The position numbers were made by a program, and so were the translations under genes. The notes beneath the pieces are model-generated. The model worked only from the letters and a program-made list of their open reading frames with translations, searched no databases and was not told the origin of the DNA. From an uncultured Christensenellaceae bacterium (GTDB taxonomy: Bacteria > Bacillota > Clostridia > Christensenellales > UBA3700), in assembly GCA_910588545.1 (NCBI GenBank), contig CAJUOU010000003.1:123999-187998 (forward strand): a stretch of 64,000 bases of DNA. The letters run 5' to 3'. Shown here piece by piece: positions 2,528 through 49,072 of the stretch. The stretch's first letter is position 1; every line of letters starts with the position of its first letter.

Positions 2528-2604
2528 GGACGATTAGCTCAGCTGGATAGAGCGTTGCGCTACGGACGCAAAGGTCAGGGGTTCGAATCCCTTATCGTTC
2601 ACCA
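2528..2604 (+). tRNA. tRNA-Arg (anticodon ACG), CCA encoded
   Basis: Hand-folded cloverleaf: acceptor GGACGAT/ATCGTTC, D arm GCTC-AGCTGGATA-GAGC, anticodon arm TTGCG-CTACGGA-CGCAA (anticodon ACG, G37), variable loop AGGTC, T arm AGGGG-TTCGAAT-CCCTT, then discriminator A and CCA. Confidence 0.93.
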
Positions 2605-2617
2605 TAAGGGAATAAGA

Positions 2618-2656
2618 CGAACTCTTTATCTAGTAAGGAGTTCGGTTTGTTTTTTA
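2618..2656 (+). terminator. Rho-independent terminator after the tRNA
   Basis: The CGAACTC...GAGTTCG stem is followed by GTTTGTTTTTT. Confidence 0.7.
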
Positions 2657-2663
2657 TGAATGA

Positions 2664-2804
2664 TTATTTTGGGTTAAAGTTGAAGGTTGTGGAGAAAAAA
2701 CGGAAAAAACATATTTTCTTAGTTCAGGCTGGATGGTTTTTTCAAATGGAAAGTTAAAAAGTAATACATTGATAGCGGATTGGTGGAAAGATGAAATTAT
2801 TTGA
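2664..2804 (+). pseudogene. Start-less 3' remnant of the 3306-3923 gene (orphan putative toxin C-terminus)
   Basis: The in-frame translation is VKVEGCGEKTEKTYFLSSGWMVFSNGKLKSNTLIADWWKDEII*. The full copy reads VKVEGSGEKTGKTYYVRSGWMVFSNGKLKSNTLIAGWWLNEVV*. There is no start codon (a TGA lies at 2661-2663). It has the same 14-nt overlap with the following 120-aa gene as the intact copy. Confidence 0.75.
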
Positions 2805-3167
2805 TAAAGTAAAAGTATTGGTTTCAAAGCCAGAATATGAAAAATGGGGAATTTTTAAAGGAATGGTCGGCACGATAATTGATGCGGAAATTCAATTTAG
2901 AGCTTTTCAAGTAATATTTACTGATCCTAGACCATTTAGTGAAGAAATAATGTATGATCTTAAAGGCGATATTGTAGATTATATTGAAATAAAAGACTTG
3001 GAAGTTGTAGAAGAGAGCGATTGCACAGATGATTATTTATTGATAAATTTACCAAAACAAAATCCAAAATGGTTTTGTAAGGTAGAAGATGGATATATAA
3101 CCAACTTGCTTGGCGAAAAATTGAATAAGATTCCTTATGATTATGATAGTTGATTTATAATGAATTT
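2672..3167 (+). repeat. Direct repeat copy A (toxin 3' end plus 120-aa gene plus 14 nt downstream)
   Basis: Aligns without indels to 3791-4286 at a constant offset of 1119 bp. The last ~177 nt are nearly identical, while the middle is diverged. Confidence 0.85.
2791..3153 (+). CDS. 120-aa putative immunity/antitoxin protein, paralogue A (DUF4926-like N-terminal half)
   Basis: MKLFDKVKVLVSKPEYEKWGIFKGMVGTIIDAEI...FQVIFTD recalls the D.V.L...G...G.VGTVV...YEVEF pattern of DUF4926. This is from memory, not searched. The gene overlaps the upstream toxin remnant by 14 nt. Confidence 0.6.
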   Translation: MKLFDKVKVLVSKPEYEKWGIFKGMVGTIIDAEIQFRAFQVIFTDPRPFSEEIMYDLKGDIVDYIEIKDLEVVEESDCTDDYLLINLPKQNPKWFCKVEDGYITNLLGEKLNKIPYDYDS

Positions 3168-3305
3168 AATTTGATAATTAATTTTTTTTAACAAGCTTTA
3201 AAATAACATTTTTTATACAATAATGCAAAAGAATTTGTCATAAAACCATTTAAAAATAATTTTTATGCCTTACAATATAGTTATAAAAATTATGTGGGGT
3301 GGAAA

Positions 3306-3923
3306 ATGTTAGCAGAGTGGACAAGCAAATGGATTAAAGTTTTTGACAAATTAAACGATATTGTCATTGATGATTTTGATTATGAACATGGTATACGTGG
3401 TCTAATAACAACTAAACATTGTGTAAAATGTATTGCAACAAATCAGTGTTGGTTTGTGGATGAAAAAAATAAAAAACCTGAACGTATGGAATATAGCTTT
3501 GAAGAGATCTTAAAGGATACAAAGAATAAAAGAGGGTTGTACCATTATAATTGTCATTGCAAAGAAATAAACATTCCTACCCCCAAAGAATCTGAAATAG
3601 AATTAATTATTCCCGAAGGAAAAATTGGATGGTTGTTTAAAGATAAAGAGGGATTGGTAAAAAAAGCTTTGGGTTATGAGCCAAATGATGAATTCTTAGA
3701 ATATTTTAAAAAACAGGTTTTGAAAAGTTATTGTAAAGGACAATATTATATATTAAATATCAATAAATATGGTGTATCCATAAGTATTAAGGTTAAAGTT
3801 GAAGGTAGTGGAGAAAAAACGGGAAAAACTTATTATGTTAGGTCAGGCTGGATGGTTTTTTCAAATGGAAAATTAAAGAGTAATACATTAATAGCAGGAT
3901 GGTGGTTAAATGAAGTTGTTTGA
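3306..3923 (+). CDS. Putative small toxin: MuF-C-terminal-like Cys/His motif domain plus a C-terminal alpha+beta (BECR/RelE-like?) module
   Basis: The track ORF starts at GTG 3294. ATG 3306 is preceded by GGGGTGG, so I prefer it. HCVKCIATNQCWF...(38 aa)...YHYNCHCKE matches the C-x2-C...H-x-N-C-x-C signature of phage Mu-F/SPP1-gp7 C-termini. The C-terminal 100 aa look like helices followed by beta strands (YYILNINKYGVSISIKVKVEG..KTYYVRSGWMVFSNGKLK). No signal peptide. Confidence 0.55.
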   Translation: MLAEWTSKWIKVFDKLNDIVIDDFDYEHGIRGLITTKHCVKCIATNQCWFVDEKNKKPERMEYSFEEILKDTKNKRGLYHYNCHCKEINIPTPKESEIELIIPEGKIGWLFKDKEGLVKKALGYEPNDEFLEYFKKQVLKSYCKGQYYILNINKYGVSISIKVKVEGSGEKTGKTYYVRSGWMVFSNGKLKSNTLIAGWWLNEVV

Positions 3924-4286
3924 CAAAGTTAAAGTTTTAGTTTCAAAAGCTGAATATGAAGAGCAAGAAGTTTATAAAGGAATGGTAGGGACAATAATTG
4001 ATGCAGAAATTAGAGGAAGGTCGTTTCATGTGATTTTTACTGACCCCACACCATTTACTGAAGAAACGATGTATTCAATTAAGCCAGATATTTTATGCGT
4101 TATAGACATAAAAGATTTGGAAGTTGTTGAAGAGAGCGATTGCACAGATGATTATTTATTGATAAATTTACCAAAACAAAATCCAAAATGGTTTTGTAAG
4201 GTAGAAGATGGATATATAACCAACTTGCTTGGCGAGAAATTGAATAAAATTCCTTACGATTACGATAGTTGATTTATAATGAATTT
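3791..4286 (+). repeat. Direct repeat copy B
   Basis: Partner of 2672-3167 at an offset of 1119 bp. Confidence 0.85.
3910..4272 (+). CDS. 120-aa putative immunity/antitoxin protein, paralogue B
   Basis: It differs from paralogue A at 20 of the first 66 residues, and the last 54 residues are identical. Its ATG overlaps the 3' end of 3306-3923 by 14 nt. Confidence 0.6.
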   Translation: MKLFDKVKVLVSKAEYEEQEVYKGMVGTIIDAEIRGRSFHVIFTDPTPFTEETMYSIKPDILCVIDIKDLEVVEESDCTDDYLLINLPKQNPKWFCKVEDGYITNLLGEKLNKIPYDYDS

Positions 4287-4378
4287 CTATTATCGGAAGT
4301 TGTCGTCAAGCGACACTAAGTGGTCTTTGACTACAGCGATTGTTAATTTAAACTATTTGTAAAATTTGAAAATCTATT

Positions 4379-4415
4379 GGTGCTATGGTCTTAAATGACT
4401 ATGGCACTATTTTTT
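4379..4415 (+). terminator. Terminator of the toxin/immunity-like islet
   Basis: The GGTGCTATGGTC-TTAAAT-GACTATGGCACT hairpin (with G-U pairs) is followed by ATTTTTTAT. Confidence 0.6.
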
Positions 4416-4704
4416 ATGTGTTTTAATCTAGATTTTTTATGTGTTAAAAACCAATTTAGCCTAAATTGTGCCAAAATCTGACATTTGTTTTTTGCTATTG
4501 CCAATTTTTGGTAATTGTTTTATAAAAATAGTAATCATTATCACTTTTTACATAAATTTTTCTTTTCATATTATAATGCTATATGATTTGAATAATTAAA
4601 TGTATAATAATAACTCTTAGTTTTTTAAACTAAACAAAAGGTATAAAATAAAGTAAAAAGTAGCAAAAATATGTGATAAAAATTTTACATAAATTTTTAC
4701 TTGA

Positions 4705-4763
4705 ACACAACATATTGTGGTCAAATTGCCAAAATCTCAAAAAATGACCACAATATATTGATT
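4705..4763 (+). promoter_or_regulatory. Two NrdR boxes upstream of nrdD
   Basis: ACACAACATATTGTGG (4705-4720) and CCACAATATATTGATT (4748-4763) both match the NrdR-box consensus acaCwAtATaTwgtgt. Their centres are 43 bp apart. Confidence 0.75.
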
Positions 4764-4770
4764 TTTCCTC

Positions 4771-4799
4771 TTGACAACGAATATAATTTGTTGTATACT
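4771..4799 (+). promoter_or_regulatory. Sigma-A type promoter of nrdDG
   Basis: TTGACA (4771-4776), a 17-nt spacer, then TATACT (4794-4799). Confidence 0.7.
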
Positions 4800-4842
4800 G
4801 AATGAGCAATATCAGTAAACCCAAAGAAGAAGGAGAAATTTT

Positions 4843-7152
4843 ATGATTAAAAGCATTATTAAAAGAGATGGCAGAAAAGTTCCATTTAATTTGCAAAAAA
4901 TTGCCGATGCTATTTTTAAGGCAGCAGCATCTGTCGGAGGAAGCGACCATGATACCGCATTAGAGCTTGCAGTTGAGGCTTGCGAGTATTTGGAAAGTCA
5001 AGGCAACACTACCCCAACCGTGGAGGAAATCCAAAACGCAGTTGAAAAGACATTAATTGAAAAGGGACACGCACAAACTGCCAAAAACTATATTCTTTAC
5101 AGAGCAAACCGTACAAGAGCAAGAGAAATGAAAACCTCTCTTATGGAAATCTATAAAGATTTAACTTTTAAAGATGCAAAAGATAACGATATAAAAAGAG
5201 AGAACGCTAACATTGACGGCGACACTGCAATGGGTACAATGTTGAAGTATGGTAGCGAAGGTGCAAAACAATTTAACAAATTGTTTGTATTGCGTCCTGA
5301 ACATGCAAAAGCTCATGAAGAGGGAGACATTCATATTCATGATTTAGACTTTTTGACATTGACTGAAACATGCTGTCAAATTGACCTAATCAAATTGTTT
5401 AAAGGCGGTTTTTGTACAGGACATGGCTTTTTGAGAGAGCCTAACGATATAGCATCCTACTCCGCACTTGCAGCAATAGCTATTCAATCCAACCAAAATG
5501 ACCAGCACGGTGGACAAAGTATTCCTAACTTTGAGTACGCAATGGCTATAGGTGTTGCAAAATCTTATAAGAAAATTTACAAGAAAAATCTTATCAAGGC
5601 TTTGGATATTTACGAAATCGAAAACGCTGAGGAAGTTGCTAATAAAATAACTGAAACACTTGCAGCAAAAGATATCGTACCTAAACTAGAGAAAGATGAA
5701 TATATGATAGAAGAAGCAAAAGAGCTTGCAAAAATCGGTATTAAAGACGAAAATATCAAAAAAATTCAAAAGTTCACAAAGAAATATTCGGAGCAAGAAA
5801 TTGACCGTGCAACATACCAAGCAATGGAGGCTTTTGTTCACAATTTGAACACAATGCACTCTCGAGCAGGCGCACAAATTCCATTTAGCAGTATCAACTA
5901 CGGTACAGATACTACTCCTGAAGGCAGACTTGTTATTAAAAACATTATGCTAGCAACAGATGCAGGTTTGGGTAACGGCGAAACAGCTATCTTCCCTATC
6001 CACATCTTTAAAGTAAAAGAGGGTGTCAACTATAATAAACAAGACCCTAACTACGATTTGTTTAAACTTGCTATTAGAGTATCTGCAAAAAGGCTGTTCC
6101 CTAACTTCTCGTTTATCGATGCTCCATTTAACCTACAATACTACAAAGAGGGCGACTACAGAACAGAAATAGCTTACATGGGTTGCCGTACAAGGGTTGC
6201 AGGTAACGTTTATGACAAAGATAGAGAGATTGTTACTCAAAGAGGCAACTTATCATTTACATCAATCAACTTGCCTAGACTTGGTATTCTTGCAAAAGGC
6301 GATATTAACAAATTCTATGAAATGCTTGACGAAAAACTTAATTTGGTTTCCGACCAATTAATGGACAGATACAAAATTCAAGCTAAAAAGAGAGTTAAAA
6401 ACTATCCTTTCCTAATGGGTCAAGGTGTATGGCTAGACAGCGATAAGCTAGACTACGAAGATGAAATCGGCGAGATTTTAAAACACGGTACATTGTCTAT
6501 CGGATTTATCGGTCTTGCAGAGTGTTTGGTAGCACTTACAGGCAAACACCACGGAGAGAGTGAGGAGTGTCAAAAACTAGGTTTGGAAATTATCAAACAC
6601 ATGAGAGACTTTACTGACAGACTTTGTGAAGAGACTCACTTTAACTATTCTGTTATTGCAACACCTGCTGAAGGCTTATCTGGTAGATTTGTGAGAATCG
6701 ATGCTAAGAAATTTGGTAAAATTAAAGGCATTACTGATAGAGAATACTATACTAACTCTTTCCATGTACCTGTTTATTACAATATCGGTGCACTTGACAA
6801 AATTAAAATCGAGGCACCTTACCACGCTTTGACAAACGGCGGACATATCAGCTATATCGAGCTTGACGGAGACCCTCTAAAGAACTTGGATGCTTTTGAA
6901 GCTTGCGTTCGTTGCATGAAAGAGGCTGGTATAGGATACGGTTCAATCAACCACCCTATAGACCGTGACCCTGTTTGCGGATATAATGGTATAATCGATA
7001 ACGTTTGTCCTAAATGCGGCAGAAAAGAGGGCGACGGCAAACAAAACTTTGAGAGAATCCGCAGAATTACAGGATACTTGGTAGGTACTGTTGATAGATT
7101 TAACAACGCAAAACGTGCCGAAGTAAACGACAGAGTAAAACACCATGTGTAA
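4843..7152 (+). CDS. nrdD: Anaerobic ribonucleoside-triphosphate reductase (class III RNR) with N-terminal ATP-cone
   Basis: The N-terminal ATP-cone is IIKRDGRKVPFNLQKI. A C-terminal Zn ribbon (CGYNG..CPKCG) and the glycyl-radical motif RRITGYLVG are present. SD is GAAGGAG. Confidence 0.95.
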   Translation: MIKSIIKRDGRKVPFNLQKIADAIFKAAASVGGSDHDTALELAVEACEYLESQGNTTPTVEEIQNAVEKTLIEKGHAQTAKNYILYRANRTRAREMKTSLMEIYKDLTFKDAKDNDIKRENANIDGDTAMGTMLKYGSEGAKQFNKLFVLRPEHAKAHEEGDIHIHDLDFLTLTETCCQIDLIKLFKGGFCTGHGFLREPNDIASYSALAAIAIQSNQNDQHGGQSIPNFEYAMAIGVAKSYKKIYKKNLIKALDIYEIENAEEVANKITETLAAKDIVPKLEKDEYMIEEAKELAKIGIKDENIKKIQKFTKKYSEQEIDRATYQAMEAFVHNLNTMHSRAGAQIPFSSINYGTDTTPEGRLVIKNIMLATDAGLGNGETAIFPIHIFKVKEGVNYNKQDPNYDLFKLAIRVSAKRLFPNFSFIDAPFNLQYYKEGDYRTEIAYMGCRTRVAGNVYDKDREIVTQRGNLSFTSINLPRLGILAKGDINKFYEMLDEKLNLVSDQLMDRYKIQAKKRVKNYPFLMGQGVWLDSDKLDYEDEIGEILKHGTLSIGFIGLAECLVALTGKHHGESEECQKLGLEIIKHMRDFTDRLCEETHFNYSVIATPAEGLSGRFVRIDAKKFGKIKGITDREYYTNSFHVPVYYNIGALDKIKIEAPYHALTNGGHISYIELDGDPLKNLDAFEACVRCMKEAGIGYGSINHPIDRDPVCGYNGIIDNVCPKCGRKEGDGKQNFERIRRITGYLVGTVDRFNNAKRAEVNDRVKHHV

Positions 7153-7633
7153 AATAAGAATTGCAGGCTTAGTCAATGACTCTATTGTAGACGGCCCGGG
7201 AATGAGACTTACCATCTTTTGCCAAGGCTGTCCACATAACTGCAAAGGCTGTCATAACAAACATACCCACGACTTTAAAGGTGGATATGATATGGACATT
7301 GACGAAATTGTTGAAAAAGCCAAAAAAAATAAAATACTAAGCGGAGTAACTTTTAGCGGTGGCGAGCCAATGTGTCAACCAAAAGCCTTTTTACAGCTTG
7401 CAAAAAAAATAAAAGCCGAAACCGACTTAAACATAATTTGCTACACAGGTTACACAATCGAAGAGCTTGAGCAAATGAACAATGCGGATATAAATGAATT
7501 GCTTGATATTTGCGATTGGTTGATAGATGGCAGATTTTGCGAAGAACTAAAGGATTTAACTCTTCCTTTCCGCGGAAGTTCCAATCAGCGAATAATAGAA
7601 CTTAAAAACAATACTATCGATTGGACAAGATAA
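7145..7633 (+). CDS. nrdG: Anaerobic RNR activating protein (radical SAM)
   Basis: The CQGCPHNCKGCHN cluster and the FSGGEP motif are present. It overlaps nrdD by 8 nt. Confidence 0.93.
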   Translation: MCKIRIAGLVNDSIVDGPGMRLTIFCQGCPHNCKGCHNKHTHDFKGGYDMDIDEIVEKAKKNKILSGVTFSGGEPMCQPKAFLQLAKKIKAETDLNIICYTGYTIEELEQMNNADINELLDICDWLIDGRFCEELKDLTLPFRGSSNQRIIELKNNTIDWTR

Positions 7634-7653
7634 AAAAATATATTTAATAAGCA

Positions 7654-7690
7654 AAAAGAGATTTGAAAATTCAAATCTCTTTTTTGTATA
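7654..7690. terminator. Bidirectional terminator between nrdG and the convergent LRR gene
   Basis: The AAAGAGATTTGA-AAAT-TCAAATCTCTTT hairpin is flanked by A and T runs. Confidence 0.75.
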
Positions 7691-7743
7691 ATTTCAAAAG
7701 ATTTAAAACAACTTAATATTGCTTATTTTTAGAAATTGATTAA

Positions 7744-9615
7744 TTAAAGAACTTCGCCGGATTTGCTTATTGTACCATCGGAACATTTAATAATATAATC
7801 TCCTGTTTGGCTATTCCAACCACTACCTTTTGTGATATTTGTCCAATCTTCCATTGTGCCACTGTACTCAATTTCTTCAAGCAACAAACAGTTTGCAAAT
7901 GCACCTACACCAATGCTTTTAATGGTAAACGGAATTACTATTTTTGTCAAAACACTATTTCCTGCAAATAGGTTGTCGCCTATTTTTGTCATATTGTAAT
8001 TAATACTATTGTATGTGGTATAAGACGGTATGTTTGCAATTTTAGAATCCATTATATTTTCTTGGAATATAACCTCGGCAGTTCTATCTTGAGTATTTAG
8101 CAAATAAATTGATACACCCTCATTTTCTAAAATTATTCTGCCATCCGATGTAATATTGTTATTGCCGTCTCCACCATCCGTATATCCCCAAATAACAGGG
8201 CGGTTTGAAGAATTCCAATCATCTTTCCAATCGTTCGGTTTAGCCTGTGCTTCACATTTTATAACTAATTTCAAGCAATATCTAAAAGCATCACTGCCTA
8301 TTTTTACAACTGTGTCAGGAATAATAATTTTACTTATTCTATCACAGCCTTGCAACATAGCTGCTCCAATAGAAGTAACGGTATCCGGAATTACAAAACT
8401 ATCCAAAAGATTACATTCCGCAAAAGCACATGCACCTATTTCCTCAACGTCAACATCGATTTCGTTTTTGCCGTTTTCCCTCCAATTAACAACTGTTAAA
8501 TTACTACAAGCATAAAAAGCGTAATTGCCTATTGTTAAAGTATTTCTTTGAATTTCTATTTGAGTAATAACATCGTTCCTATAAAAAGCGTAGCCCATGA
8601 TACTTGTGACATTATATGTTTTACCATCATACTCGACAGCAGGTCGCAACTCTATATTATCGTTTGTAATAGGTTGTTTAGCTACAATAGCCTCGTTGCC
8701 TTTGATGCCGTATTTTACAGTCCCTCTATTAGTATCGATAAAATAAATATATCCGTCATCCGCAACATTATTATTGTCTGCATTCCACACAATAGGATAG
8801 CGGCTAAATTGGTCTATCTTCCAATCATAGGTAATCCAACCTGCAGGTTTTTCTTTAGCTTGGGCATTGATTGTTATTCCGTAGCAATTTTCAAATACAC
8901 CTTCCTCTATATCTTTTACACTTGTAGGTATGTATATTTCCGCCAAAGCCGAACAACCGTAAAAAGCTCTCTCCTTGATTGTTGCAACAGTTTTAGGTAT
9001 ATAAACTTTTGATAACGCACGTTTGCCGTAAAAAGCCTTGTCTCCTATTACAGTTACAGGTTTGCCGTCATAATACTCGCTGATTACAACTTCCGTAATC
9101 ATATTTTCGATATCTCTTTCAACCCCGCTGACAGTGTAGGAATATCCGTCGGTATTTAATGAATAAATAAGTCCCTCCGAGCCTTTCATAAAACCGCAAA
9201 CAGCACATTTCCCTTTTTCGAATGTGTGATTTACTTCTTCTTTGGAAATATCGCAAATATCGCTGCAATCATACCAATGATTTTTATCGTCATATTTTAT
9301 TGTATGGCTATGCTTATTGCCACACAAAGTACAAATATCTTCGCTGTTATAAGTATGAACAACTTTATCCTTTTCATATCCGCAAACGGAACACTCATGC
9401 CAATGATAATTGTTATCAAAATTCAACTCAAAGCTATGCTCTGCGTAGTCATTTCTTTCCTTGCATTTCTTCTTAGTGCAGTCATGCCAATGATGTGTTT
9501 CGTTATTTGACCATTCTATATTCCATTCGTGGTTGTGCTTACAGGCAACCAAGCCCGTGCACATAACACAAAGCAACACGATTATAGCAAAAATTATAAT
9601 TGATTTTCTTTTCAT
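7744..9615 (-). CDS. BspA-type leucine-rich-repeat (LRR_5) surface lipoprotein with N-terminal Cys/His-rich repeats
   Basis: The signal peptide plus lipobox is LVAC. Repeated FxxCxxLxxIxIPxSVxxIGxxAF units are present (e.g. AFYGCSALAEIYIPTSVKDI, AFAECNLLDSFVIPDTVTSIG). The N-terminus carries HxW(H/Y)xC...C modules. Confidence 0.85.
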   Translation of the reverse strand: MKRKSIIIFAIIVLLCVMCTGLVACKHNHEWNIEWSNNETHHWHDCTKKKCKERNDYAEHSFELNFDNNYHWHECSVCGYEKDKVVHTYNSEDICTLCGNKHSHTIKYDDKNHWYDCSDICDISKEEVNHTFEKGKCAVCGFMKGSEGLIYSLNTDGYSYTVSGVERDIENMITEVVISEYYDGKPVTVIGDKAFYGKRALSKVYIPKTVATIKERAFYGCSALAEIYIPTSVKDIEEGVFENCYGITINAQAKEKPAGWITYDWKIDQFSRYPIVWNADNNNVADDGYIYFIDTNRGTVKYGIKGNEAIVAKQPITNDNIELRPAVEYDGKTYNVTSIMGYAFYRNDVITQIEIQRNTLTIGNYAFYACSNLTVVNWRENGKNEIDVDVEEIGACAFAECNLLDSFVIPDTVTSIGAAMLQGCDRISKIIIPDTVVKIGSDAFRYCLKLVIKCEAQAKPNDWKDDWNSSNRPVIWGYTDGGDGNNNITSDGRIILENEGVSIYLLNTQDRTAEVIFQENIMDSKIANIPSYTTYNSINYNMTKIGDNLFAGNSVLTKIVIPFTIKSIGVGAFANCLLLEEIEYSGTMEDWTNITKGSGWNSQTGDYIIKCSDGTISKSGEVL

Positions 9616-9710
9616 AATCCCCTCTAGGTAACATTAATTACATTATAATTTTATCATAATAAATATTATAAGTCAATATTTATATAGACTTTAAAGGCAT
9701 ATTATACCAA

Positions 9711-9756
9711 TAAAAAAAGGATACAAACCAAAATATGGAATGTATCTCTGTTTTTA
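9711..9756 (-). terminator. Probable terminator downstream of the MMPL gene
   Basis: The minus strand reads GATACA...TGTATCC followed by TTTTTTT. Confidence 0.45.
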
Positions 9757-9823
9757 ATTATATAAAGTTTCGTTAACGTTTTTTTAACATCGGCAGTTTT
9801 ATTTTCTAACCTTTCCTACATTT

Positions 9824-12091
9824 TTATATTCGTTTTTCAATGTCGGAATTGCTGTCATTATCCTTTATACAGTTTTCTTCCTGCTCTTGCTCAGTCAAAA
9901 CATTTTGGTCAGCTGCCACCATTGCAACTTGCTTTTTATTACGCTTACTTTGCAGTTTACTACCGATTTTCAAACGGATTTTATGAAAAATATCATCGTT
10001 TGTAGGAGGTTTTCTTGTAATGGCAATTAGCAGTGCCGGCAAAACAAACAGTATCAATAGCGCGCTAATTATTGCGCCTCTACCAATAAGCAAAGTAATT
10101 TGTCCTATAATAGCATTTGTTGTTATTGCGCATACTGCCAAACACAAAACACCCAAAATCGTAGCCGATGTAAGTATTGACAATGTGCTATCTTTTGTGG
10201 CTTTTAAACAAGCTTGTTTAACAGGCATAGTTGCCATATTACGCTTAAATTTAGTTGCCAGCAATATCGCATAATCTACCGTTGCACCCATTTGTACACT
10301 GCTTATTATGATATATGCCATAAAGTTGACAGGTGATTGGATAATAAAATTAAGCGCTAAATTTATAAATATACCAAACTCCACAACACCCATAAGTGCG
10401 AGCGAGTATTTTGCACTTCGTATGGACAGCATTAGTATTATAAATATAATGATTGCACTTATTGCGGAAACCAAAGCAAAGTCCTTTGGCGTTACCACCG
10501 ACAAGTCGTTTACCGCCTGTGCCATACCCGTAATGTAATATTTGTCGCCGAAATATTTTTTGAGCGTATCTCTTACATTTTGCAGTAATATACCCTCTTC
10601 CGCCGATTCCGACTCTGTTTCTATCATAAGAGTATACAGCACATATCCATTGTTTGCATACGCTTTTAATTGTGGCAAATTCCATTTAATTGCAAGCGAT
10701 AATTGCTCTGCCATTTCCTCGGGTGCAAGTGCATAAATGCTACTTACTACGCTTACATTTTCAATCTTTTTCAAATCTTCGATAAAATCTAGGTGTACGG
10801 CTGCTTTATCGTTAGGAGCACAAATCAAAATACTGTTTCCCATAACTTCAACAACTTGTTGAACTTCGCTAAGTTCCGATTTGTCCTTATCCATTTTCAT
10901 ATACGAATAAGATATGCTAAGCCCACAATAAATCATTGGCACCAAAGCTATCAATGCGATTGCAAGTATAGGTTTTCTGCCCTTGATAGCTACTTCCGCA
11001 CTTTTTTGAAATTTAGGTAAATGTACGGGGTGCTCAAGCTTGGCAGTAGTTTTTGTAGTAAACAATATCAAACAAGGTTGCAAAAACAAAACCGTAAGCA
11101 TTGACATTAACACACCCTTTGCAAGCACGATACCCAAATCGGCACCTATACCGAACTGCATAAACATTAAAGCAATAAAGCCCCCGACCGTAGTAAGTGC
11201 AGAGGCACAAACCGTCGATAAAGTTTTTGGTATAGCTCGTTTCATTGCAGTCCTGTCATCAAAACACATTTTCCGTTCTTCCTTAAATGCATGCATCAAG
11301 AAAATCGAGTAGTCCATTGACAAAGCAAGTTGCAATATTGCGGAAGTAGCAAATGTAATGACCGATACATCCCCCAAAATGATATTACTACCCATATTAA
11401 GGAAAATGCTAATTGCCAAAGTTGTCAGCAAAATAACAGGCTCGAAAAAGCTTGTCGTAGTCAAAACCAACACCAAAATTGCGATTATACACGCAACAAT
11501 TAGGAAATACGGCATTTCTTTTACAACAGTTCCTAGCAAGTTTGTGGAAATCTCCGCGCTGCCACCAATAGCATAATCCAAACCATAGCTTTCAATTATC
11601 TTTTTGGTTTGTTTTAAAATACCGCTCGCCTCGTTAGTACTTGATGCAACTGACATTTGTACCATAATGGTATAAATATCCTCTTGTGGACAAAACAGTT
11701 TTTTAACATCTGGGTTGTTTTTAATTTGCTCAACAAGTTCATTGGCATCTACACCACCGATATTACCCATACTTGCAAAGCTATCCAAAGTTCCGTACCA
11801 AGTTATGCCGTTCGCACGTACTCCTTCAAGCTCTTGCATTTTCTTTGTAATTTCCGTCATTTGCTCTTCGCTAGCACCTTTTACGGCAACAATGGCATCA
11901 CTTTCCATATCAAAAGTTTTCTTTAAAAAAGCATATCCCTCGGAAGTTGTCATATCATCCGGCAAATAGGATATAATATCGGAATTTATAGGCACAAAAA
12001 ACAAGCATACAAGGGCAATTATCGTAAGTATCAAAAACGCAACGCTTATTGCAAGTTTATGTTTTACGATAAAATCAGAAAACTTTTCCAT
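9824..12091 (-). CDS. MMPL/RND-superfamily membrane transporter
   Basis: 755 aa. Two blocks of about 6 TM helices are each preceded by a large soluble loop. The motif LALSMDYSIFLMHAFKEE and the second-half GATVDYAILL are typical of MMPL proteins. Confidence 0.85.
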   Translation of the reverse strand: MEKFSDFIVKHKLAISVAFLILTIIALVCLFFVPINSDIISYLPDDMTTSEGYAFLKKTFDMESDAIVAVKGASEEQMTEITKKMQELEGVRANGITWYGTLDSFASMGNIGGVDANELVEQIKNNPDVKKLFCPQEDIYTIMVQMSVASSTNEASGILKQTKKIIESYGLDYAIGGSAEISTNLLGTVVKEMPYFLIVACIIAILVLVLTTTSFFEPVILLTTLAISIFLNMGSNIILGDVSVITFATSAILQLALSMDYSIFLMHAFKEERKMCFDDRTAMKRAIPKTLSTVCASALTTVGGFIALMFMQFGIGADLGIVLAKGVLMSMLTVLFLQPCLILFTTKTTAKLEHPVHLPKFQKSAEVAIKGRKPILAIALIALVPMIYCGLSISYSYMKMDKDKSELSEVQQVVEVMGNSILICAPNDKAAVHLDFIEDLKKIENVSVVSSIYALAPEEMAEQLSLAIKWNLPQLKAYANNGYVLYTLMIETESESAEEGILLQNVRDTLKKYFGDKYYITGMAQAVNDLSVVTPKDFALVSAISAIIIFIILMLSIRSAKYSLALMGVVEFGIFINLALNFIIQSPVNFMAYIIISSVQMGATVDYAILLATKFKRNMATMPVKQACLKATKDSTLSILTSATILGVLCLAVCAITTNAIIGQITLLIGRGAIISALLILFVLPALLIAITRKPPTNDDIFHKIRLKIGSKLQSKRNKKQVAMVAADQNVLTEQEQEENCIKDNDSNSDIEKRI

Positions 12092-27027: not shown

Positions 27028-28776
27028 TTAATTAATTTCTTTTTCTTCTACAACTTCTCCTGCCTTGTTAAGTGTTCCGTCGGTACACTCTACAATAAAC
27101 TCCCCTGTATCTCTCCAAGCTACCTCTTTTGTAACTTTCTTCCAATCAACCATACTACCCCCAAAAATAATACGCGTTAACTTTGAAAACCCGTCAAAAG
27201 CATATTTTGCTATACTTACTTTACTATTGGAGATTGTGATAGATACAAACTCGCTACCCCCCTCAAACGTATTGTTTTTTATTTGAGTTATCGCCTCAGG
27301 TATTACCAATTCGGTTATCAACGCTTCATTTAAATATAAATTATGTGCATAATATAATGGGTTTGAACGGTTTGCACCAAAATCTATATTACACCATGCC
27401 TCTAAGTCGTTTATTAAAACTGCTCTAAGTTCACTGCATTGTTCAAAAGCATAATCTCCAATAAAATTTACACTTTCCGATATTTTAACTTGTTCTAGAG
27501 AATTACAATATTCAAAAGCTCTGGCACCAATTTGAGTTACGCCATTTGGAATTTCCAAAGTTACAAGGCTACGACAAAGACCAAACGCACTTTCGCCGAT
27601 ACTGACTACGCTGTCGGAAATTGTCAAATCGATTAACCTTGTACATACATAAAATGCTTGTATGCCTATGCTTTGCAATTTGTTGCCAATAACAACGCTG
27701 GTAAGTCCGCTACAATCTCTAAACGCAAAATCGCCCAATGTAACCACACTATTTGGTAGTGTTAAATCGGTAAGTCCGCTGCAAAAATAAAAAGCACTTT
27801 CCCCTATTTCCGTTATATTTTCATGCAAAGTCACACTTTTTAAAGCATTGCAACCGACAAATGTATTATTTTTTATAACCTTAACGCTATCTGGTACTAT
27901 TAAATCACTGATTACTTGGTTATTCAAATACAATTTGCCTGCATAATACAACGGGTTAGATAAACTATCTTGAAAATATATATTAAACCAAGCTTGCAAA
28001 TTTGTTATATAAATACCATTTAATTTACTACATCTTTCAAACGCCCTACTATCAATTTGACCAACCGTTTCAGGAATTGTGATTTTTGTTAAATTGCTAC
28101 ATCCTCCAAAAGCGTAACTCCCTATTTTTGTAATTCCATTTCCTAATGTTAAACTGCTTATACCTCTACAATCATAAAAGGCACTATTCTCTATCACTGA
28201 CACACAGTCGGATAAAACTATTTCCTTAAGACTATAACACTCGTAAAAAGTATTGCTTTTAATAACTGCAACATTTTCGGAAATTTTTATTTCCGCAAGA
28301 TTACTACATCTTTCAAATGCACCTATACCCAAACTTGTCAAACTGTTTGGTAAAGACATACTTGTAAGAGCATTGCAACCTTTAAATGCGTAATCTCCGA
28401 TTTTGGTAACAGTTTCAGGTATATTTATTTTGATTAGTTGTTTGCAATCTTTAAACGCACTTTCCCCTATTTCAGTCACTCCGTTAGGTATAGTAACGCT
28501 TTTTATATTTTTACATCCGTCAAATACATTGTTTTTTATCCCTACAACATTTATATCGTTATACTTAGACGGAATAACAATATCCGTTGCTTTTGCATCC
28601 AACAACTCACTTACGTAATATCCATTGCTAGACAGGTCGTATTTAAAAGTTTCAATAATATCTTGAGGTTGCTCCTCATTTTTACTTTCGTTTTTATCAC
28701 ATCCTATCAAAATAACCGACATTGTCAGCATTAAAGCAATTAAAATAAATATCAATAACCTTTTTGATTTATGCAT
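27028..28776 (-). CDS. BspA-type leucine-rich-repeat surface lipoprotein
   Basis: The start is set at MHKSKRLL (ATG 28776, SD TAGGAGG), whereas the track ORF starts further upstream. The lipobox is LIGC. It has more than 15 LRR_5 units (e.g. AFKDCKQLIKINIPETVTKIGDYAF). Confidence 0.85.
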   Translation of the reverse strand: MHKSKRLLIFILIALMLTMSVILIGCDKNESKNEEQPQDIIETFKYDLSSNGYYVSELLDAKATDIVIPSKYNDINVVGIKNNVFDGCKNIKSVTIPNGVTEIGESAFKDCKQLIKINIPETVTKIGDYAFKGCNALTSMSLPNSLTSLGIGAFERCSNLAEIKISENVAVIKSNTFYECYSLKEIVLSDCVSVIENSAFYDCRGISSLTLGNGITKIGSYAFGGCSNLTKITIPETVGQIDSRAFERCSKLNGIYITNLQAWFNIYFQDSLSNPLYYAGKLYLNNQVISDLIVPDSVKVIKNNTFVGCNALKSVTLHENITEIGESAFYFCSGLTDLTLPNSVVTLGDFAFRDCSGLTSVVIGNKLQSIGIQAFYVCTRLIDLTISDSVVSIGESAFGLCRSLVTLEIPNGVTQIGARAFEYCNSLEQVKISESVNFIGDYAFEQCSELRAVLINDLEAWCNIDFGANRSNPLYYAHNLYLNEALITELVIPEAITQIKNNTFEGGSEFVSITISNSKVSIAKYAFDGFSKLTRIIFGGSMVDWKKVTKEVAWRDTGEFIVECTDGTLNKAGEVVEEKEIN

Positions 28777-28907
28777 AATAAGACCTCCTATACGAAATTT
28801 ATTATACAGTGCTTTACACTGCAAGTCAAGCATTTTACAGTGGTTTGCACTACAACATTAGTGATAAACGATTAGCATTGTTACAAACTAATAAGTAGTG
28901 AGGGATT

Positions 28908-45820: not shown

Positions 45821-48800
45821 TTATACAAGCGATTTTATTGTTTCGCTATCGTTATAATATTTACCGCCGATAGCAATTAATTTTACATCAGTGTAGCCAT
45901 CCAAATCCGCTTTTGAGATAACCAACTCTGTTACCCCCGTACTGATTTCGTAGTCCGATTTATCCACACCCGTAAATACCAACTTATATCTTAATGCGTT
46001 GTCTACTTTATTCCAACTAAACACATAGTTGTCGCCGTCCATCTTAATTTCAAGCGATGGAGCAGCCAAATCAACATTTATAGGGTCGAACTTGGCATAA
46101 GCTTTAGCACTTGAATTAATACCATCTACACTGCTTTTTGCTACAATGATTATAGAGTGGTTACCGGGAGTAGTAAGCAAACTAGCAAACTTAGCCTCAC
46201 CGCTCAAATTAAAGGAAATTTCCTCCCCTGCTTTAACATTGTCATTTTTAATAGTCATTACAATACCATCAAAAACTATCTCGTAAGTTTCGGCAAAATG
46301 CACTGCTTTAAAAGTCAAAACATACTCATTGTTGTTATTTTTATCAACCTTTGGAGTTCCTACTTTATCAAGTGTGATATAGTGTGTGTGTTGTGTAAAG
46401 TAAGGGTCGCTATCTCTTATAAATTCGGGCTCGTCAGAGCGCAATACAATTTTAATCGAGTGGTTGCCTACAGTGTTTAAAACAGTTCCCAAATCAAATA
46501 CGTAGTTCGGTATACCATCGCTGTCCCTGTCTATTGCAAATTCCAAAGGAGTTTCCGCGTTATCAATAGTTACCAAAACTTTGGTAGCTAAACTATCGAT
46601 AGAAGAAAGTTCAAGCGTAGCTTTATCGCCGACTCTTTCGATAACTGCAAATTGAGGAGTCTCAAGCCAATCTATATATTTTTCGTTTTGAACATTGATA
46701 ATCAATGCGTTATTATCTTTCAAACTCTCTTTACTTATCCAAACAGTGTTGGTGCCGATGATTTTTTTGAAACCGCCGTTTTCACTTACGTAAACAAGTT
46801 TACCGCCACTGATTGTACCAAGTTCGCCGCTATTAAAATTGTTGTAAGTAAAGCCTACCAATCTTAGTTCCGATTGCTCGTCCAATACTGCATTACCAAT
46901 ATCGCTGTTTGCACGAACACGCGCATTTTGCAAATTAATGTCGATTTTTGTAGCTTTATTAAATGTAATATCCGAATTTACGGCATTAATACTACTTATA
47001 TTTTCGCCAAAAGCTAGTTGGTCAAAAACGACTTTACTACTTCTTATATTAAACGAATTGTTTGCTTGAATACTACCTATAGAATTGCCTTGAGCAATGC
47101 TGTCAAACTCGATATCATTAGCAGAGACATTTGTCAAAATAGTTATTGTATTTGCATTTTTTATTAACAATTTGCCGTTAACGGTAATTTTACCACCCAA
47201 AGTATACTCTTTGCCCGACTTAACACCAAGCGTCATAGCACCGCCTTTAGGGTTTTCCAACGTAAGGTTACCATTTACTGTCAAAGTTTTTTTGTTTAAA
47301 TCCACATTTAAACCAAGTGTCAAATCGCCGTCAACCGTTATATCCTTTTCCAAATAATACAGTTCCTTTTTGTCCTTGATAGGCTTTGCAAAATCTTCCG
47401 CGCTGCTTATCAATACTTTAGGCGCATTAATAACCAAAATAGGTGTTAAAACAGATACCAAAATAACAACCGCAAGCACAGCAACGGCAATTAAAATTGT
47501 AATAAGCTTTTTCTTTTTAGGGGAAGCTTTGCCTTTTTTATCCCCGCCTTTCTTTTTGCCATTTTTATCTGTGCTTTGCTCATCGCCCTCACTGTTTTGC
47601 TCAATAGGGTCGATTTTTGTTGCATTTTCCGTAGTACTATCATCTACGATAACTATATCGCTGTTTGCATCTTTAACTTCGTCATTGCTGTTTTGTTTGT
47701 CAACAGGAATATCGCTTTCTTTGTCAACCACTTGGTCGTTAACGTTATCAACTTCTGCGACACTTTCATTTATCTCCTGCTCTTCCAAATCATTTTGCTC
47801 GTCTATTACAGCATCGATATTATCTTTTTCTTGCATATCTTCTTCCTTTTGCAAAAACAAATCTACCAATTCATCGCCCGAATTTAGCATAATTCCTGTT
47901 TTTGCACATTCACTTTCAGTATATGCAGAAACACCTTGTTTAATACAAGTGCTGTCGTAAATAATAAACGGAATAGGCTCACTGCTGTGAGTTTTTGTGA
48001 CAAGCGGTGTTGGATGGTCAGGGCATACCAAAATACGCAAGTCCTCGTCCTCGAGCTCGCTCAAAATATATGCTACAACCTTTTCGTCAATAAGCTCGAT
48101 AGATTTTACCTTGCCTTTGCTATCTCCTTGATGTCCGCACTCATCAGGCGCCTCCATGTGAAGATATACATAGTCAAAGCCGTCGCGTATAGCTTGCACG
48201 CAAGCTTGTGCTTTACCCGCAAAATTGGTATGTACAGTGCCTGTAGCACCCTCTACTTCTATAATTTCCATACCGCTTGCAATGCCTATGCCTTTTAGCA
48301 AATCGACAGCGGAAATCACAGCACCCTTCAAGCCGCGTAAGCTCTCAAAGTTAGGAAGAGTAGGTTTGCTACCCTCTCCCCATAGCCAAATGCTGTTTGC
48401 AGGGTTTTTACCGTCTGCTATCCTTTTTAAATTTATAGGGTGGTCTTTTAAAATATCATACGACTTAACCATAAGGTCAAGCATTTTATCTCCGTAAAGA
48501 CCTTTTGGCAAGTAATCGCCAATAACTTTACCGCTAATGTCATGCGGAGGTGTGTATTCCGTACCGCGCTCGCCGTTATGTTTAATCAAACAGTGTCTGT
48601 AACTTACACCGCTGTAAAAAGCAAACTCGTCATCTCCAAGCGCCTCTTGAACAAAGCTGATAAGCTCTGCTGCCTCTTCGGTAGAAATTTCGCCCGCACT
48701 GTAGTCCAGCATGCTTTTATCTGCATAGTTTTCTTCCTCGGACAAAGTAACAAGGTTACATCTTACAGCCAAATCACTGTCCGCCATATCAACACCTATA

Positions 48801-49072
48801 CTTAGTGCCTCCAAAGGTGACCTGCCGCTGTAATACTTTAACGGAGAATATCCCATAACCGACAAATTGGCAACATCACTGCCGGGTTTTATGCCGTCGG
48901 GAACAGTCTTGCACATACCGCAAATTGCCTTTTGTGCCAAGCTGTCAATATTAGGCTTGTATGCAACCTCAAGAGGGGTCATACCGCCTAGTGCGTCCGA
49001 TGGCATATCTGCCATTCCGTCCCCTAAAATCACAATATATTTCATATCATACCTACCTTTGGCATACGCCAA
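45821..49072 (-). CDS. Fusion protein: ApgM-type cofactor-independent phosphoglycerate mutase-family domain, acidic linker, one TM helix, then an extracellular beta-helix/Ig-like repeat region
   Basis: A single 1083-aa ORF. The likely start is MKYIVILGDGMAD at 49045 (SD AGGTAGG). Residues ~10-415 match the COG3635/ApgM pattern (PGSDVANLSVMGY, YSGVSYRHCL, PPHDISGK, HMEAPDECGH, CPDHPTPL). These are followed by a ~100-aa D/E/N-rich linker, KKKGGDKKGKASPKKKK, the TM LITILIAVAVLAVVILVSVLTPILVI (about 47430-47510), and 530 aa of repeats. Confidence 0.8.
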   Translation of the reverse strand: MAYAKGRYDMKYIVILGDGMADMPSDALGGMTPLEVAYKPNIDSLAQKAICGMCKTVPDGIKPGSDVANLSVMGYSPLKYYSGRSPLEALSIGVDMADSDLAVRCNLVTLSEEENYADKSMLDYSAGEISTEEAAELISFVQEALGDDEFAFYSGVSYRHCLIKHNGERGTEYTPPHDISGKVIGDYLPKGLYGDKMLDLMVKSYDILKDHPINLKRIADGKNPANSIWLWGEGSKPTLPNFESLRGLKGAVISAVDLLKGIGIASGMEIIEVEGATGTVHTNFAGKAQACVQAIRDGFDYVYLHMEAPDECGHQGDSKGKVKSIELIDEKVVAYILSELEDEDLRILVCPDHPTPLVTKTHSSEPIPFIIYDSTCIKQGVSAYTESECAKTGIMLNSGDELVDLFLQKEEDMQEKDNIDAVIDEQNDLEEQEINESVAEVDNVNDQVVDKESDIPVDKQNSNDEVKDANSDIVIVDDSTTENATKIDPIEQNSEGDEQSTDKNGKKKGGDKKGKASPKKKKLITILIAVAVLAVVILVSVLTPILVINAPKVLISSAEDFAKPIKDKKELYYLEKDITVDGDLTLGLNVDLNKKTLTVNGNLTLENPKGGAMTLGVKSGKEYTLGGKITVNGKLLIKNANTITILTNVSANDIEFDSIAQGNSIGSIQANNSFNIRSSKVVFDQLAFGENISSINAVNSDITFNKATKIDINLQNARVRANSDIGNAVLDEQSELRLVGFTYNNFNSGELGTISGGKLVYVSENGGFKKIIGTNTVWISKESLKDNNALIINVQNEKYIDWLETPQFAVIERVGDKATLELSSIDSLATKVLVTIDNAETPLEFAIDRDSDGIPNYVFDLGTVLNTVGNHSIKIVLRSDEPEFIRDSDPYFTQHTHYITLDKVGTPKVDKNNNNEYVLTFKAVHFAETYEIVFDGIVMTIKNDNVKAGEEISFNLSGEAKFASLLTTPGNHSIIIVAKSSVDGINSSAKAYAKFDPINVDLAAPSLEIKMDGDNYVFSWNKVDNALRYKLVFTGVDKSDYEISTGVTELVISKADLDGYTDVKLIAIGGKYYNDSETIKSLV

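Follow-up and report, generated by a model that had tools for sequence, protein, structure and literature searches.

Polymorphic BECR RNase toxin-immunity pairs, the pairing of DUF6883 with DUF4926, and MuF toxins are all already known from in silico work. A 2026 preprint equates DUF6883 with the BECR-Tox3 family of colicin-like BECR RNases, reports a conserved DUF4926 gene downstream of it and its frequent fusion to an N-terminal Phage_Mu_F domain, and cites Iyer et al. 2017 for MuF-fused PBECR domains (bioRxiv 10.64898/2026.08.28.747851). In temperate phages, canonical MuF polymorphic toxins have a complete MuF domain, and their genes lie in prophage head modules (Jamet et al. 2017, PMC5576092). 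The contact-dependent inhibition (CDI) toxin of Klebsiella pneumoniae 342 (Kp342) is a BECR tRNase built of five helices and four strands, with K157, Y160, H170, R252 and T255 in its active site; its immunity protein has one helix and nine strands (PMC9086364). Here we describe a related locus between a tRNA-Arg gene and nrdD in a 64,000-nucleotide stretch of DNA from an uncultured Christensenellaceae bacterium (GenBank assembly GCA_910588545.1, contig CAJUOU010000003.1, positions 123,999 to 187,998 of the forward strand). We call this whole stretch the window, and all positions below are counted from its first letter unless they follow a locus handle.

We consider it likely that the locus is an allele-specific toxin-immunity array that includes a decayed cassette; this judgement concerns the identity of the locus, and the route of toxin delivery is judged separately below. 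A full cassette comprises a gene for a cytoplasmic toxin of ~200 amino acids (aa) followed, in an overlapping frame, by a gene for a 120-aa immunity protein. One live cassette (alpha toxin, 3306-3923, with immunity a, 3910-4272) lies in the window behind a wrecked gamma cassette with an intact immunity gene, immA. The new elements are the ~200-aa 'mini-MuF' architecture, the two-domain immunity protein and, in gut Clostridia, a chromosomal array of several alleles that includes a fossil cassette and an orphan immunity gene. The features of the interval are as follows.

2528..2604, forward strand: tRNA-Arg(ACG), found by ARAGORN (Rfam RF00005, 63.9 bits); left edge of the variable interval
2618..2654, forward strand: tRNA terminator hairpin and T-run; 12-bp stem at 2618-2644, then GTTTGTTTTT (terminator scan)
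2664..2804, forward strand: 3' remnant, without start codon, of a toxin gene of allele gamma; homology at 2673-2801 to toxin residues 163-205
2791..3153, forward strand: immA, intact orphan immunity gene of allele c (the gamma cognate), 120-aa open reading frame (ORF)
3154..3305, forward strand: inter-cassette spacer with putative toxin promoter (TTTAAA-16-TACAAT at 3249-3276) and putative ribosome-binding site (GGGGTGG)
3306..3590, forward strand: toxin N-terminal domain, aa 1-95, with a Cys/His knuckle like the MuF C-terminus (HCxxC...C...YHxNCHC)
3591..3923, forward strand: toxin C-terminal domain, aa 96-205 and stop codon, a predicted BECR-fold RNase (DUF6883/BECR-Tox3-like)
3730..3819, forward strand: toxin hypervariable patch, aa ~142-171, strands beta1-beta2, candidate determinant of immunity specificity
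3910..4272, forward strand: immB, immunity gene of allele a, cognate of the resident alpha toxin, 120-aa ORF; variable N-domain aa 1-73 (3910-4128), conserved C-domain aa 74-120
4378..4419, forward strand: terminator-like hairpin closing the array; 13-bp stem at 4378-4409, then TTTTTTATGT (terminator scan)

A sequence-only reading of this DNA had reported the order of tRNA-Arg(ACG) and terminator, remnant, 120-aa, 205-aa and 120-aa genes, and every coordinate checks. It was also correct in describing an in-register repeat without indels: 2672-3167 matches 3791-4286 at an offset of 1119 bp, with 84.9% identity over 496 bp and 0 indels. This similarity is far above chance and is a mosaic, with 78.3% identity over the first 318 bp and 96.6% over the last 178 bp. 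Each small gene overlaps the preceding frame by 14 nt (2791-2804 and 3910-3923). The toxin ORF encodes 205 aa from an ATG preceded at 5-11 nt by GGGGTGG; an upstream GTG at 3294 is unused by homologues. The spacer is 96-100% identical among alpha, beta and gamma cassettes, and the putative promoter within it is no better than shuffle expectation. The array is flanked upstream by genes for a helix-turn-helix (HTH) protein and a Pyridox_ox_2 protein and by tRNA-Arg, and downstream by nrdD, nrdG and the gene for an LRR_5 protein.

We compared the toxin with known families by sequence profile and by predicted structure. A word-indexed search returned 29 close relatives, all of ~200 aa and all from metagenome-assembled genomes (MAGs) of uncultured Clostridia; invariant among them in the C-terminal part are K114, G123, Y147, G156, N187, G188, K191, N193 and T194. 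AlphaFold2 modelled aa 96-205 with a pLDDT of 80-96 as three helices (106-113, 115-121 and 128-143) followed by a four-stranded antiparallel sheet (147-153, 156-166, 175-184 and 189-204). In the model, the C-terminal domain has the BECR colicin-like topology of a pre-alpha helix, a core alpha helix and four antiparallel strands. The sole convincing match to this model in the PDB (Foldseek) was chain 6cp9_G, from the CdiA-CT/CdiI complex of Kp342 (probability 0.95, TM(target) 0.65, root-mean-square deviation 2.7 Å, 108 columns). The topology of the model fits the toxin chain of that complex, because the toxin is reported to have five helices and four strands and the immunity protein a helix and nine strands.

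Profile searches placed the same domain in a family with several delivery architectures. An exhaustive search with the toxin family retrieved 333 proteins at E<=0.001, in which the domain forms the C-terminus of a 2022-aa Rhs protein, an 886-aa DUF637/PT-VENN (CdiA-like) protein, a PG_binding_1 protein and several 400-530-aa proteins with unassigned N-termini. These longer proteins all reach or nearly reach the Pfam cut-off for DUF6883 (PF21814, gathering score 27 bits). Proteins retrieved at E 1e-9 to 1e-13 pass PF21814 themselves: P0262 scores 36.0 bits, P0268 33.4, P0278 33.0, P0261 32.7 and P0236 30.3, with P0219 and P0257 at 30.7. By profile search, then, the predicted toxin domain is homologous to bona fide DUF6883/BECR-Tox3 members. 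Positions conserved in at least 75% of 164 aligned relatives include K106, F111, K114, G123, Y124, Y142, G145, Y147, G156 and T194, and the window toxin has all of them. We infer RNase activity, probably against tRNA, at a Lys/Tyr/Thr site.

The likeness to the Kp342 toxin, which is the best structural match to the model, extends to this candidate site. K114, Y124/Y142/Y147 and T194 form a Lys/Tyr/.../Thr set like that of K157, Y160, H170, R252 and T255, but no conserved equivalent of the His or Arg was identified in the window family. The sequence-only reading had proposed Foldseek and Pfam searches; besides the DUF6883/BECR-Tox3 homology and the Kp342 CdiA-CT match, these gave no match to a housekeeping family in Pfam or NCBIfam. 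A search of PDB sequences with the toxin profile found no match. For all three proteins, NCBIfam and PADLOC gave no usable match and PHROGs gave weak matches alone (best E 0.0056), to families without known function; the locus is therefore not a catalogued defence system.

The 120-aa proteins belong to a large family (>181 matches) with a variable N-terminal half and a highly conserved C-terminal half, LPxxNPxWWCKVEDGYIxNLLGEKKNKIPYDYDS. The AlphaFold2 model (pLDDT 96.9) is an SH3/KOW-like barrel followed by a small C-domain, and Foldseek matched the N-terminal half to ribosomal L24/KOW, NusG, PsaE and SH3 domains at probabilities of ~0.99. Over aa 3-45, immA matches DUF4926 (PF16277) at 15.9 bits (E 0.0086) and immB at 14.6 bits (E 0.022). 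DUF4926 was matched at E<=0.01 by 13 of 38 members of the immunity family (best 1.4e-6), and four relatives carry a precomputed PF16277 assignment. The immunity genes sit downstream of a DUF6883-like toxin, as reported for DUF4926 partners. They differ from the DUF4926 model, which has 57 positions, in being twice as long and in having an extra conserved C-domain, and they differ from the Kp342 CdiI, which has an alpha helix and nine beta strands where our model has an SH3-like barrel and a small domain. Pfam and Foldseek revealed no HTH, ribbon-helix-helix (RHH) or AbrB domain in the 120-aa proteins.

The locus resembles the BECR-Tox3/DUF6883 and DUF4926 systems in the profile-level homology of its toxin, the colicin-like pre-alpha, alpha and beta1-4 elements of the model, the downstream DUF4926-related gene and a MuF link. 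The accessible part of the DUF6883 preprint describes no multi-allele array with an orphan immunity gene (bioRxiv 10.64898/2026.08.28.747851). An earlier description of the locus as an uncharacterised conflict system remains apt experimentally, but not in silico, where the family pairing had been described (bioRxiv 10.64898/2026.08.28.747851).

The segment 2664-2804 is an in-frame stop-to-stop stretch without an ATG, GTG or TTG ahead of its SGWMVF motif, and tblastn aligned 2673-2801 to toxin residues 163-205 with 77% aa identity; only the last 43 codons are present. Its translation, VKVEGCGEKTEKTYFLSSGWMVFSNGKLKSNTLIADWWKDEII, bears the gamma-specific tail (TYFLSS...IADWWKDEII) of the toxins P0005, L015_t2 and L020_t2, and it reads ...TYFLSSGWMVFSNGKLKSNTLIADWWKDEII, which is the tail of gamma toxins. 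In L015 and L020, where gamma toxins are intact, the immunity protein encoded behind them is identical to that of immA; the exact immA sequence is indexed in 64 collection blocks, and in the contigs read it always lay at this locus. Because of the gamma tail and the allele c that follows it, the remnant with immA is a wrecked gamma cassette and no duplicate of the alpha gene.

Pairing of this kind holds for the whole set. Four toxin and four immunity alleles occur in strict pairs across independent contigs: alpha, the window toxin, with a (immB, always found after alpha toxins); beta with b; gamma, of the P0005 type with the tail TYFLSSGWMVF...IADWWKDEII, with c; and delta, a 198-aa toxin, with d, a 122-aa immunity protein. 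These results refine several of the first interpretations. The suggestion that a toxin C-terminus had been displaced together with the partner gene behind it was confirmed with unusual directness, as the remnant has a gamma tail and the next gene is the immunity allele found behind gamma toxins everywhere else. The segment 2664-2804 is indeed a start-less toxin 3' end, but of a different allele from the 3306-3923 gene, and the two 120-aa paralogues are distinct specificity alleles rather than products of a simple duplication. The toxin/immunity reading itself stood up to all the computational tests that could be applied, and is supported by the DUF6883/BECR-Tox3 homology, the DUF4926-related partners and the strict allele pairing.

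The label of an orphan C-terminal (CT) module was right in naming a toxin C-terminus with its own partner, and wrong in that what remains is a 43-codon stump and not a complete CT module. Since it is without the conserved K114, Y124, Y142 and Y147, the remnant is a dead stump and not a swappable CT module. Typical CDI orphans are complete CT domains, whereas this stump also has no conserved homology for re-attachment. Remnants lie at the same position in L001, L015, L020, L053 and L055, all beginning after a shared ATGAATGATT motif 3' of the tRNA, and the first residues retained differ among haplotypes. The arrangement is old, because every remnant-bearing haplotype has it at the same position, always after ATGAATGATT.

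Alpha and beta cassettes are 93-100% identical outside two patches, toxin ~142-171 and immunity ~1-73 (the SH3-like domain). Identity falls to 73% in the toxin patch (3730-3819), where synonymous divergence (dS) is 1.8 and the ratio of nonsynonymous to synonymous divergence (dN/dS) is 0.11. Overall, dS exceeds 1 in the variable core and is 0.1-0.2 in the conserved parts, with dN/dS ~0.1 throughout; from the difference in dS, these are old alleles with flanks homogenised by recombination. As the two patches are the sole differences between otherwise near-identical cassettes, we assign specificity to them, and they are the inferred interface between toxin and immunity protein. Immunity genes in the orphan position (L001:3581-3946, L015:271-630, L055:3695-4057) are often chimeras with c- or d-like N-termini and a- or d-like remainders, which indicates gene conversion inside the array.

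We compared the tRNA-Arg to nrdD interval among contigs of the same or sister species that share these flanks, whose identity with the window is 96-99% for L012 and 91-94% for L001. The arrangements found were as follows.

L012: one full cassette, without remnant
Window, L017-19, L021, L054: remnant with immunity gene, and one cassette
L016/L052 (and 6 similar places): remnant with immunity gene, and one cassette with the toxin frameshifted
L055, L056 (and 7 similar places), L022: remnant with immunity gene alone
L001/L024, L015: remnant with immunity gene, and two cassettes
L020: remnant with immunity gene, and one cassette of another type
L053, L057: remnant with immunity gene, preceded by a 2.66-kb insertion with ASCH genes at the 3' end of the tRNA

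The delta toxin of L015 carries an in-frame stop. A check of this interval across relatives had been proposed, and cassette content does vary from strain to strain; neither an invariant interval nor homology of the 205-aa protein to a housekeeping enzyme was seen. The comparison indicates that the array changes by recombination between conserved cassette flanks, and that toxins are repeatedly lost or broken as immunity genes persist. Such persistence of immunity despite toxin loss suggests protection from toxins that arrive from outside the cell. The tRNA-Arg to nrdD position is not shared across species but confined to the species group of the window.

In L053 (6252-8907) and L057, tRNA-Arg(ACG) has a 2.66-kb element inserted precisely at its 3' end, which corresponds to window ~2604/2605; an ACCATAA direct repeat flanks the element. 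Two ASCH proteins are encoded in it, one of 621 aa with the domain at its N-terminus (Pfam E 7e-8) and one of 123 aa, and no integrase was seen. This insertion makes the 3' end of the tRNA a hotspot that does not depend on the toxin cassettes.

Beyond this species group, we examined 28 species-representative loci of Christensenella, Christensenellaceae and other uncultured Clostridia, all from gut metagenomes. Of the 27 that have downstream sequence, 26 carry an intact immunity gene directly behind the toxin. In L045, as in the phage contig L058 described below, one toxin is followed by three tandem immunity genes. Stops or frameshifts split the toxin in four (L038, L039, L040, L051). We dropped a species-level statistic of toxin versus immunity breakage, with 4 broken toxins against 1 truncated and 1 partial extra immunity gene being too few; the breakage argument rests on the within-species haplotypes, because the species-level counts are too small. 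Two general features of polymorphic toxins are evident from the sequences: a C-terminal domain shared among delivery families, and co-variation of toxin and immunity protein. CDI and Rhs loci are alike in carrying the domain, on CdiA-like and Rhs proteins, and in having toxin remnants followed by intact immunity genes; the window toxin differs in being without CdiA/CdiB, an Rhs shell or PT-VENN.

The N-terminal part of the toxin is modelled poorly by AlphaFold2 (low pLDDT), and H38, C39, C42, C48, H80, C83 and H84 are invariant in it among the close relatives. Many distant relatives of ~195-200 aa also have CxxC...(P)xHPNC[RHK]C, and we take the CxxC...HPNCxC pattern to be the C-terminal motif of MuF/SPP1-gp7 head proteins. 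Two relatives, P0184 and P0243, gave sub-threshold Pfam matches (E 0.17, 0.26) to the last 40-50 positions of the Phage_Mu_F model. By tblastn, aa 4-83 of P0184 match (E 9e-3) the C-terminus of gp04, a 'head morphogenesis' protein of Clostridium phage phi8074-B1 that is a true PF04233 member (E 4e-11) encoded directly 3' of the portal gene; hhalign aligned the N-domain profile with the last 37 residues of gp04 (probability 76%, E 2.3e-5). In BFVD, the whole toxin model has its best structural neighbours in two 'minor capsid protein' entries, one of 473 aa (E 6.6e-5) and one of 497 aa (E 4.9e-2). PF04233 was matched at E<=1 by neither the window toxin nor 20 relatives, and a search with the N-domain profile alone returned more ~200-aa DUF6883 proteins and no PF04233-annotated or MuF protein. 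The N-domain therefore looks like a MuF-derived knuckle and not a complete MuF domain, as far as these alignments go. The sequence-only reading had described the toxin as small and without a signal peptide, which is borne out by the sequence, and as without a recognisable trafficking domain; this holds for LXG, WXG100, Rhs and PT-VENN, but not for the MuF-like CxxC...HxNCxC knuckle.

One distant homologue lies inside a phage head module. In L058 (IMG/VR IMGVR_UViG_3300031555_010284, 4629-10474), a gene for a P22-like portal (Pfam E 9e-26) is followed by the toxin homologue, three immunity genes, a 236-aa acidic protein and a 401-aa major capsid protein with tblastn matches (E 4e-21) to annotated capsid genes. 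The ~200-aa homologue is full-length and begins at the portal stop. This is the canonical MuF (gp7) slot, between the portal and the scaffold-like and capsid genes. The portal, scaffold-like and capsid proteins of L058 have no match near the other fetched loci or in the window, and we discarded a 215-aa and a 401-aa gene after the P0028 cassette as candidate scaffold and capsid genes because they have no similarity to the L058 proteins. A scan of IMG/VR with patterns of the toxin profile found no match, and a search with the immunity profile found two contigs. A prophage head-module location was thus seen in L058 alone, and in neither the window nor its species relatives.

The locus shares with MuF toxins a toxin domain at the C-terminus with a small immunity ORF behind it, a Firmicutes bias, the CxxC...HPNCxC motif, a homologue in the MuF slot and 'minor capsid protein' neighbours in BFVD. 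It departs from them in the size of the toxin (205 aa), in the absence of a PF04233 match at E<=1 and in its chromosomal setting without nearby phage genes, and from DUF6883-MuF fusions in keeping only a knuckle-sized piece of MuF.

From these features we propose the following mechanism. The toxin would cleave RNA, most likely tRNA, at a site formed by K114, Y124/Y142/Y147 and T194, and the immunity protein would neutralise it by direct binding. Allele specificity would depend on residues ~142-171 of the toxin and ~1-73 of the immunity protein, with the variable SH3-like domain reading the beta1-beta2 patch of the toxin; the conserved immunity C-domain may touch the catalytic face, which is conserved too. 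Cassettes would arise and disappear through unequal crossing-over and gene conversion between conserved flanks, and orphan immunity genes would be kept as protection against toxins made elsewhere. If these predictions hold, the locus offers a compact, experimentally tractable RNase toxin-immunity pair with natural specificity alleles, and its four-by-four allele pairs, differing in two short patches, would lend themselves well to work on how specificity between toxin and immunity protein is encoded. At the strain level, toxins turn over and immunity genes persist, which bears on mutual exclusion of close gut strains among uncultured Christensenellaceae-like Clostridia.

For delivery, the phage-head route is the only positive clue, given by the one homologue in the MuF position. 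We regard it as a speculative and rather unlikely proposal that the ~200-aa proteins are 'mini-MuF' toxins whose Cys/His knuckle would be the smallest part of MuF able to dock on a phage portal. In one version, chromosomal toxins would be loaded in trans into the capsids of resident or visiting phages and injected into rival cells, so that the arrays would serve as a store of alleles for phage-delivered warfare, with the orphan immunity genes as a host shield from incoming particles. In the other, the knuckle would be a decoy that senses the portal of an invading phage and frees the RNase for abortive infection. Either version, if true, would be a novel way in which phage head assembly is coupled to a toxin-immunity locus of the host. 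Through this family, MuF head-protein toxins of phages are connected with small cassettes on chromosomes, which raises the question of whether phage-particle delivery was kept or the proteins were domesticated as toxin-antitoxin (TA) or immunity modules.

Several observations weigh against reading the locus as a polymorphic toxin-immunity array. The Foldseek E-value of the toxin against 6cp9_G is just 0.24, and that chain was taken as the toxin by topology alone. Against PF21814 the window toxin scores 15.9 bits (E 0.016, aa 121-189), below the cut-off of 27, and just 5 of 20 close relatives match the family at E<=1; the immunity proteins fall under the gathering score of DUF4926 (15.9 versus 29.1 bits). 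The window proteins are thus divergent from the DUF6883/DUF4926 systems, under both Pfam cut-offs, and their homology therefore rests on profile transitivity and predicted structure. We looked for positive selection in the variable patches and saw no sign of it; dN/dS of ~0.1 with saturated dS makes the alleles old rather than fast diversifying. Sequence reading and Pfam found no secretion signal, type VII secretion (T7SS)/LXG, WXG100, Rhs, PT-VENN or complete MuF domain in the 205-aa protein, and the ten largest other ORFs of the window include no prophage or secretion genes. The N-terminal secretion or trafficking domain and linked export apparatus of polymorphic toxins are therefore missing, with the MuF-like knuckle the sole candidate. 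None of three tblastn queries (toxin, immunity protein, long DUF6883 protein) had a match in 50,697 isolated phage genomes. One species-level locus, L025, has an immunity gene truncated after ~30 codons beside an open toxin ORF. Lastly, P0022, P0028, P0029, P0315, P0326, P0357 and the species group of the window have ordinary chromosomal surroundings, which would equally fit an intracellular TA module. The toxin of L025 (21-690) carries C48R at a nearly invariant knuckle cysteine, a change that may inactivate the toxin and permit loss of immunity.

There is a real possibility, short of an even one in our judgement, that the locus is a duplicated type II TA module acting inside its producer in addiction, stress response or abortive infection. 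The 120-aa proteins would then be antitoxins and the remnant with immA a TA pair with a deleted toxin, an explanation that differs in biological use only. Like RelE/ParE systems, the cassettes are small, bicistronic and overlapping, by 14 nt in the window and 4 nt at the P0022, P0028 and P0029 loci, and encode small proteins without export signals. They are scattered over chromosomes as single pairs amid housekeeping genes, such as ribosomal protein genes or near dnaA, with several loci per genome in some MAGs (L027/L028, L037/L040). Toxin inactivation is frequent, and BECR is also the fold of RelE/ParE toxins. However, the toxin gene comes first here, the toxin has an extra Zn-knuckle domain, the partner has no recognisable DNA-binding fold, and the alleles stand in arrays with persistent orphan partners. 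The arrangement of an intact immunity gene without toxin is old, in lineages 6-9% apart in DNA, and common, which is unexpected for an antitoxin without a target. Runs of three immunity genes behind one toxin, exported Rhs and CdiA toxins that end in the same domain, the homologue within a phage head module, the lack of a PADLOC match, and a single locus in the species representative (in a search limited to two peptide patterns) also speak against TA.

It seems very improbable that the cassettes are a functionless relic of a decayed prophage, leftovers of a head module (MuF toxin and immunity gene) kept by hitch-hiking or residual addiction. The MuF-like knuckle, the portal-to-capsid position of the L058 cassette, the tRNA-adjacent site where another element inserts and several toxin pseudogenes are what such a relic might leave behind, but no other phage gene accompanies the cassettes in the window or its relatives. 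Moreover, all three ORFs (toxin and two immunity proteins) are intact with dN/dS ~0.1, all residues conserved in the family are kept, and allele pairing is maintained across haplotypes, implying ongoing selection. That a housekeeping or regulatory operon unrelated to conflict was simply duplicated in tandem is strongly disfavoured, to the point of being scarcely credible. A repeat in perfect register and metabolic flanking genes (encoding the Pyridox_ox_2 protein, nrdD, nrdG) might suggest it; against this, the two copies represent distinct alleles whose synonymous divergence exceeds 1 in the variable core, strains with 96-99% identical flanks show a hypervariable interval, the toxin is homologous to Rhs/CdiA toxin C-terminal domains, and Pfam and NCBIfam gave no match to a housekeeping family. 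We conclude that an allele-specific toxin-immunity array is the likely identity of the locus.

Other observations concern the surroundings of the array. The same promoter-like sequence, TTGACA-17-TATACT, with identical hexamers and spacing, precedes tRNA-Arg (2479-2507) and nrdD (4771-4799), and these are the two best consensus matches in the region. Just 5' of the second site and of nrdD (4843) are two AT-rich palindromes, 4705-4721 (ACACAACATATTGTGGT) and 4747-4761 (ACCACAATATATTGA), which we presume to resemble NrdR boxes. Farther along the window, a reverse-strand ORF of 1083 aa (45821-49072, TTG start) matches phosphoglycerate mutase domains (PhosphMutase, Metalloenzyme) over its first ~390 residues and has no Pfam match at E<=1e-5 over the remaining ~690; it may be a fusion or an over-extended ORF call. 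A 1189-aa ORF (50470-54039, reverse strand) has a single GLUG motif as its sole Pfam match. Two further genes on the reverse strand, 7744-9615 and 27028-28833, encode BspA-type LRR_5 surface proteins; the first (623 aa) has N-terminal Cys/His-rich repeats (HxWxxC...) and adjoins nrdG in all relatives.

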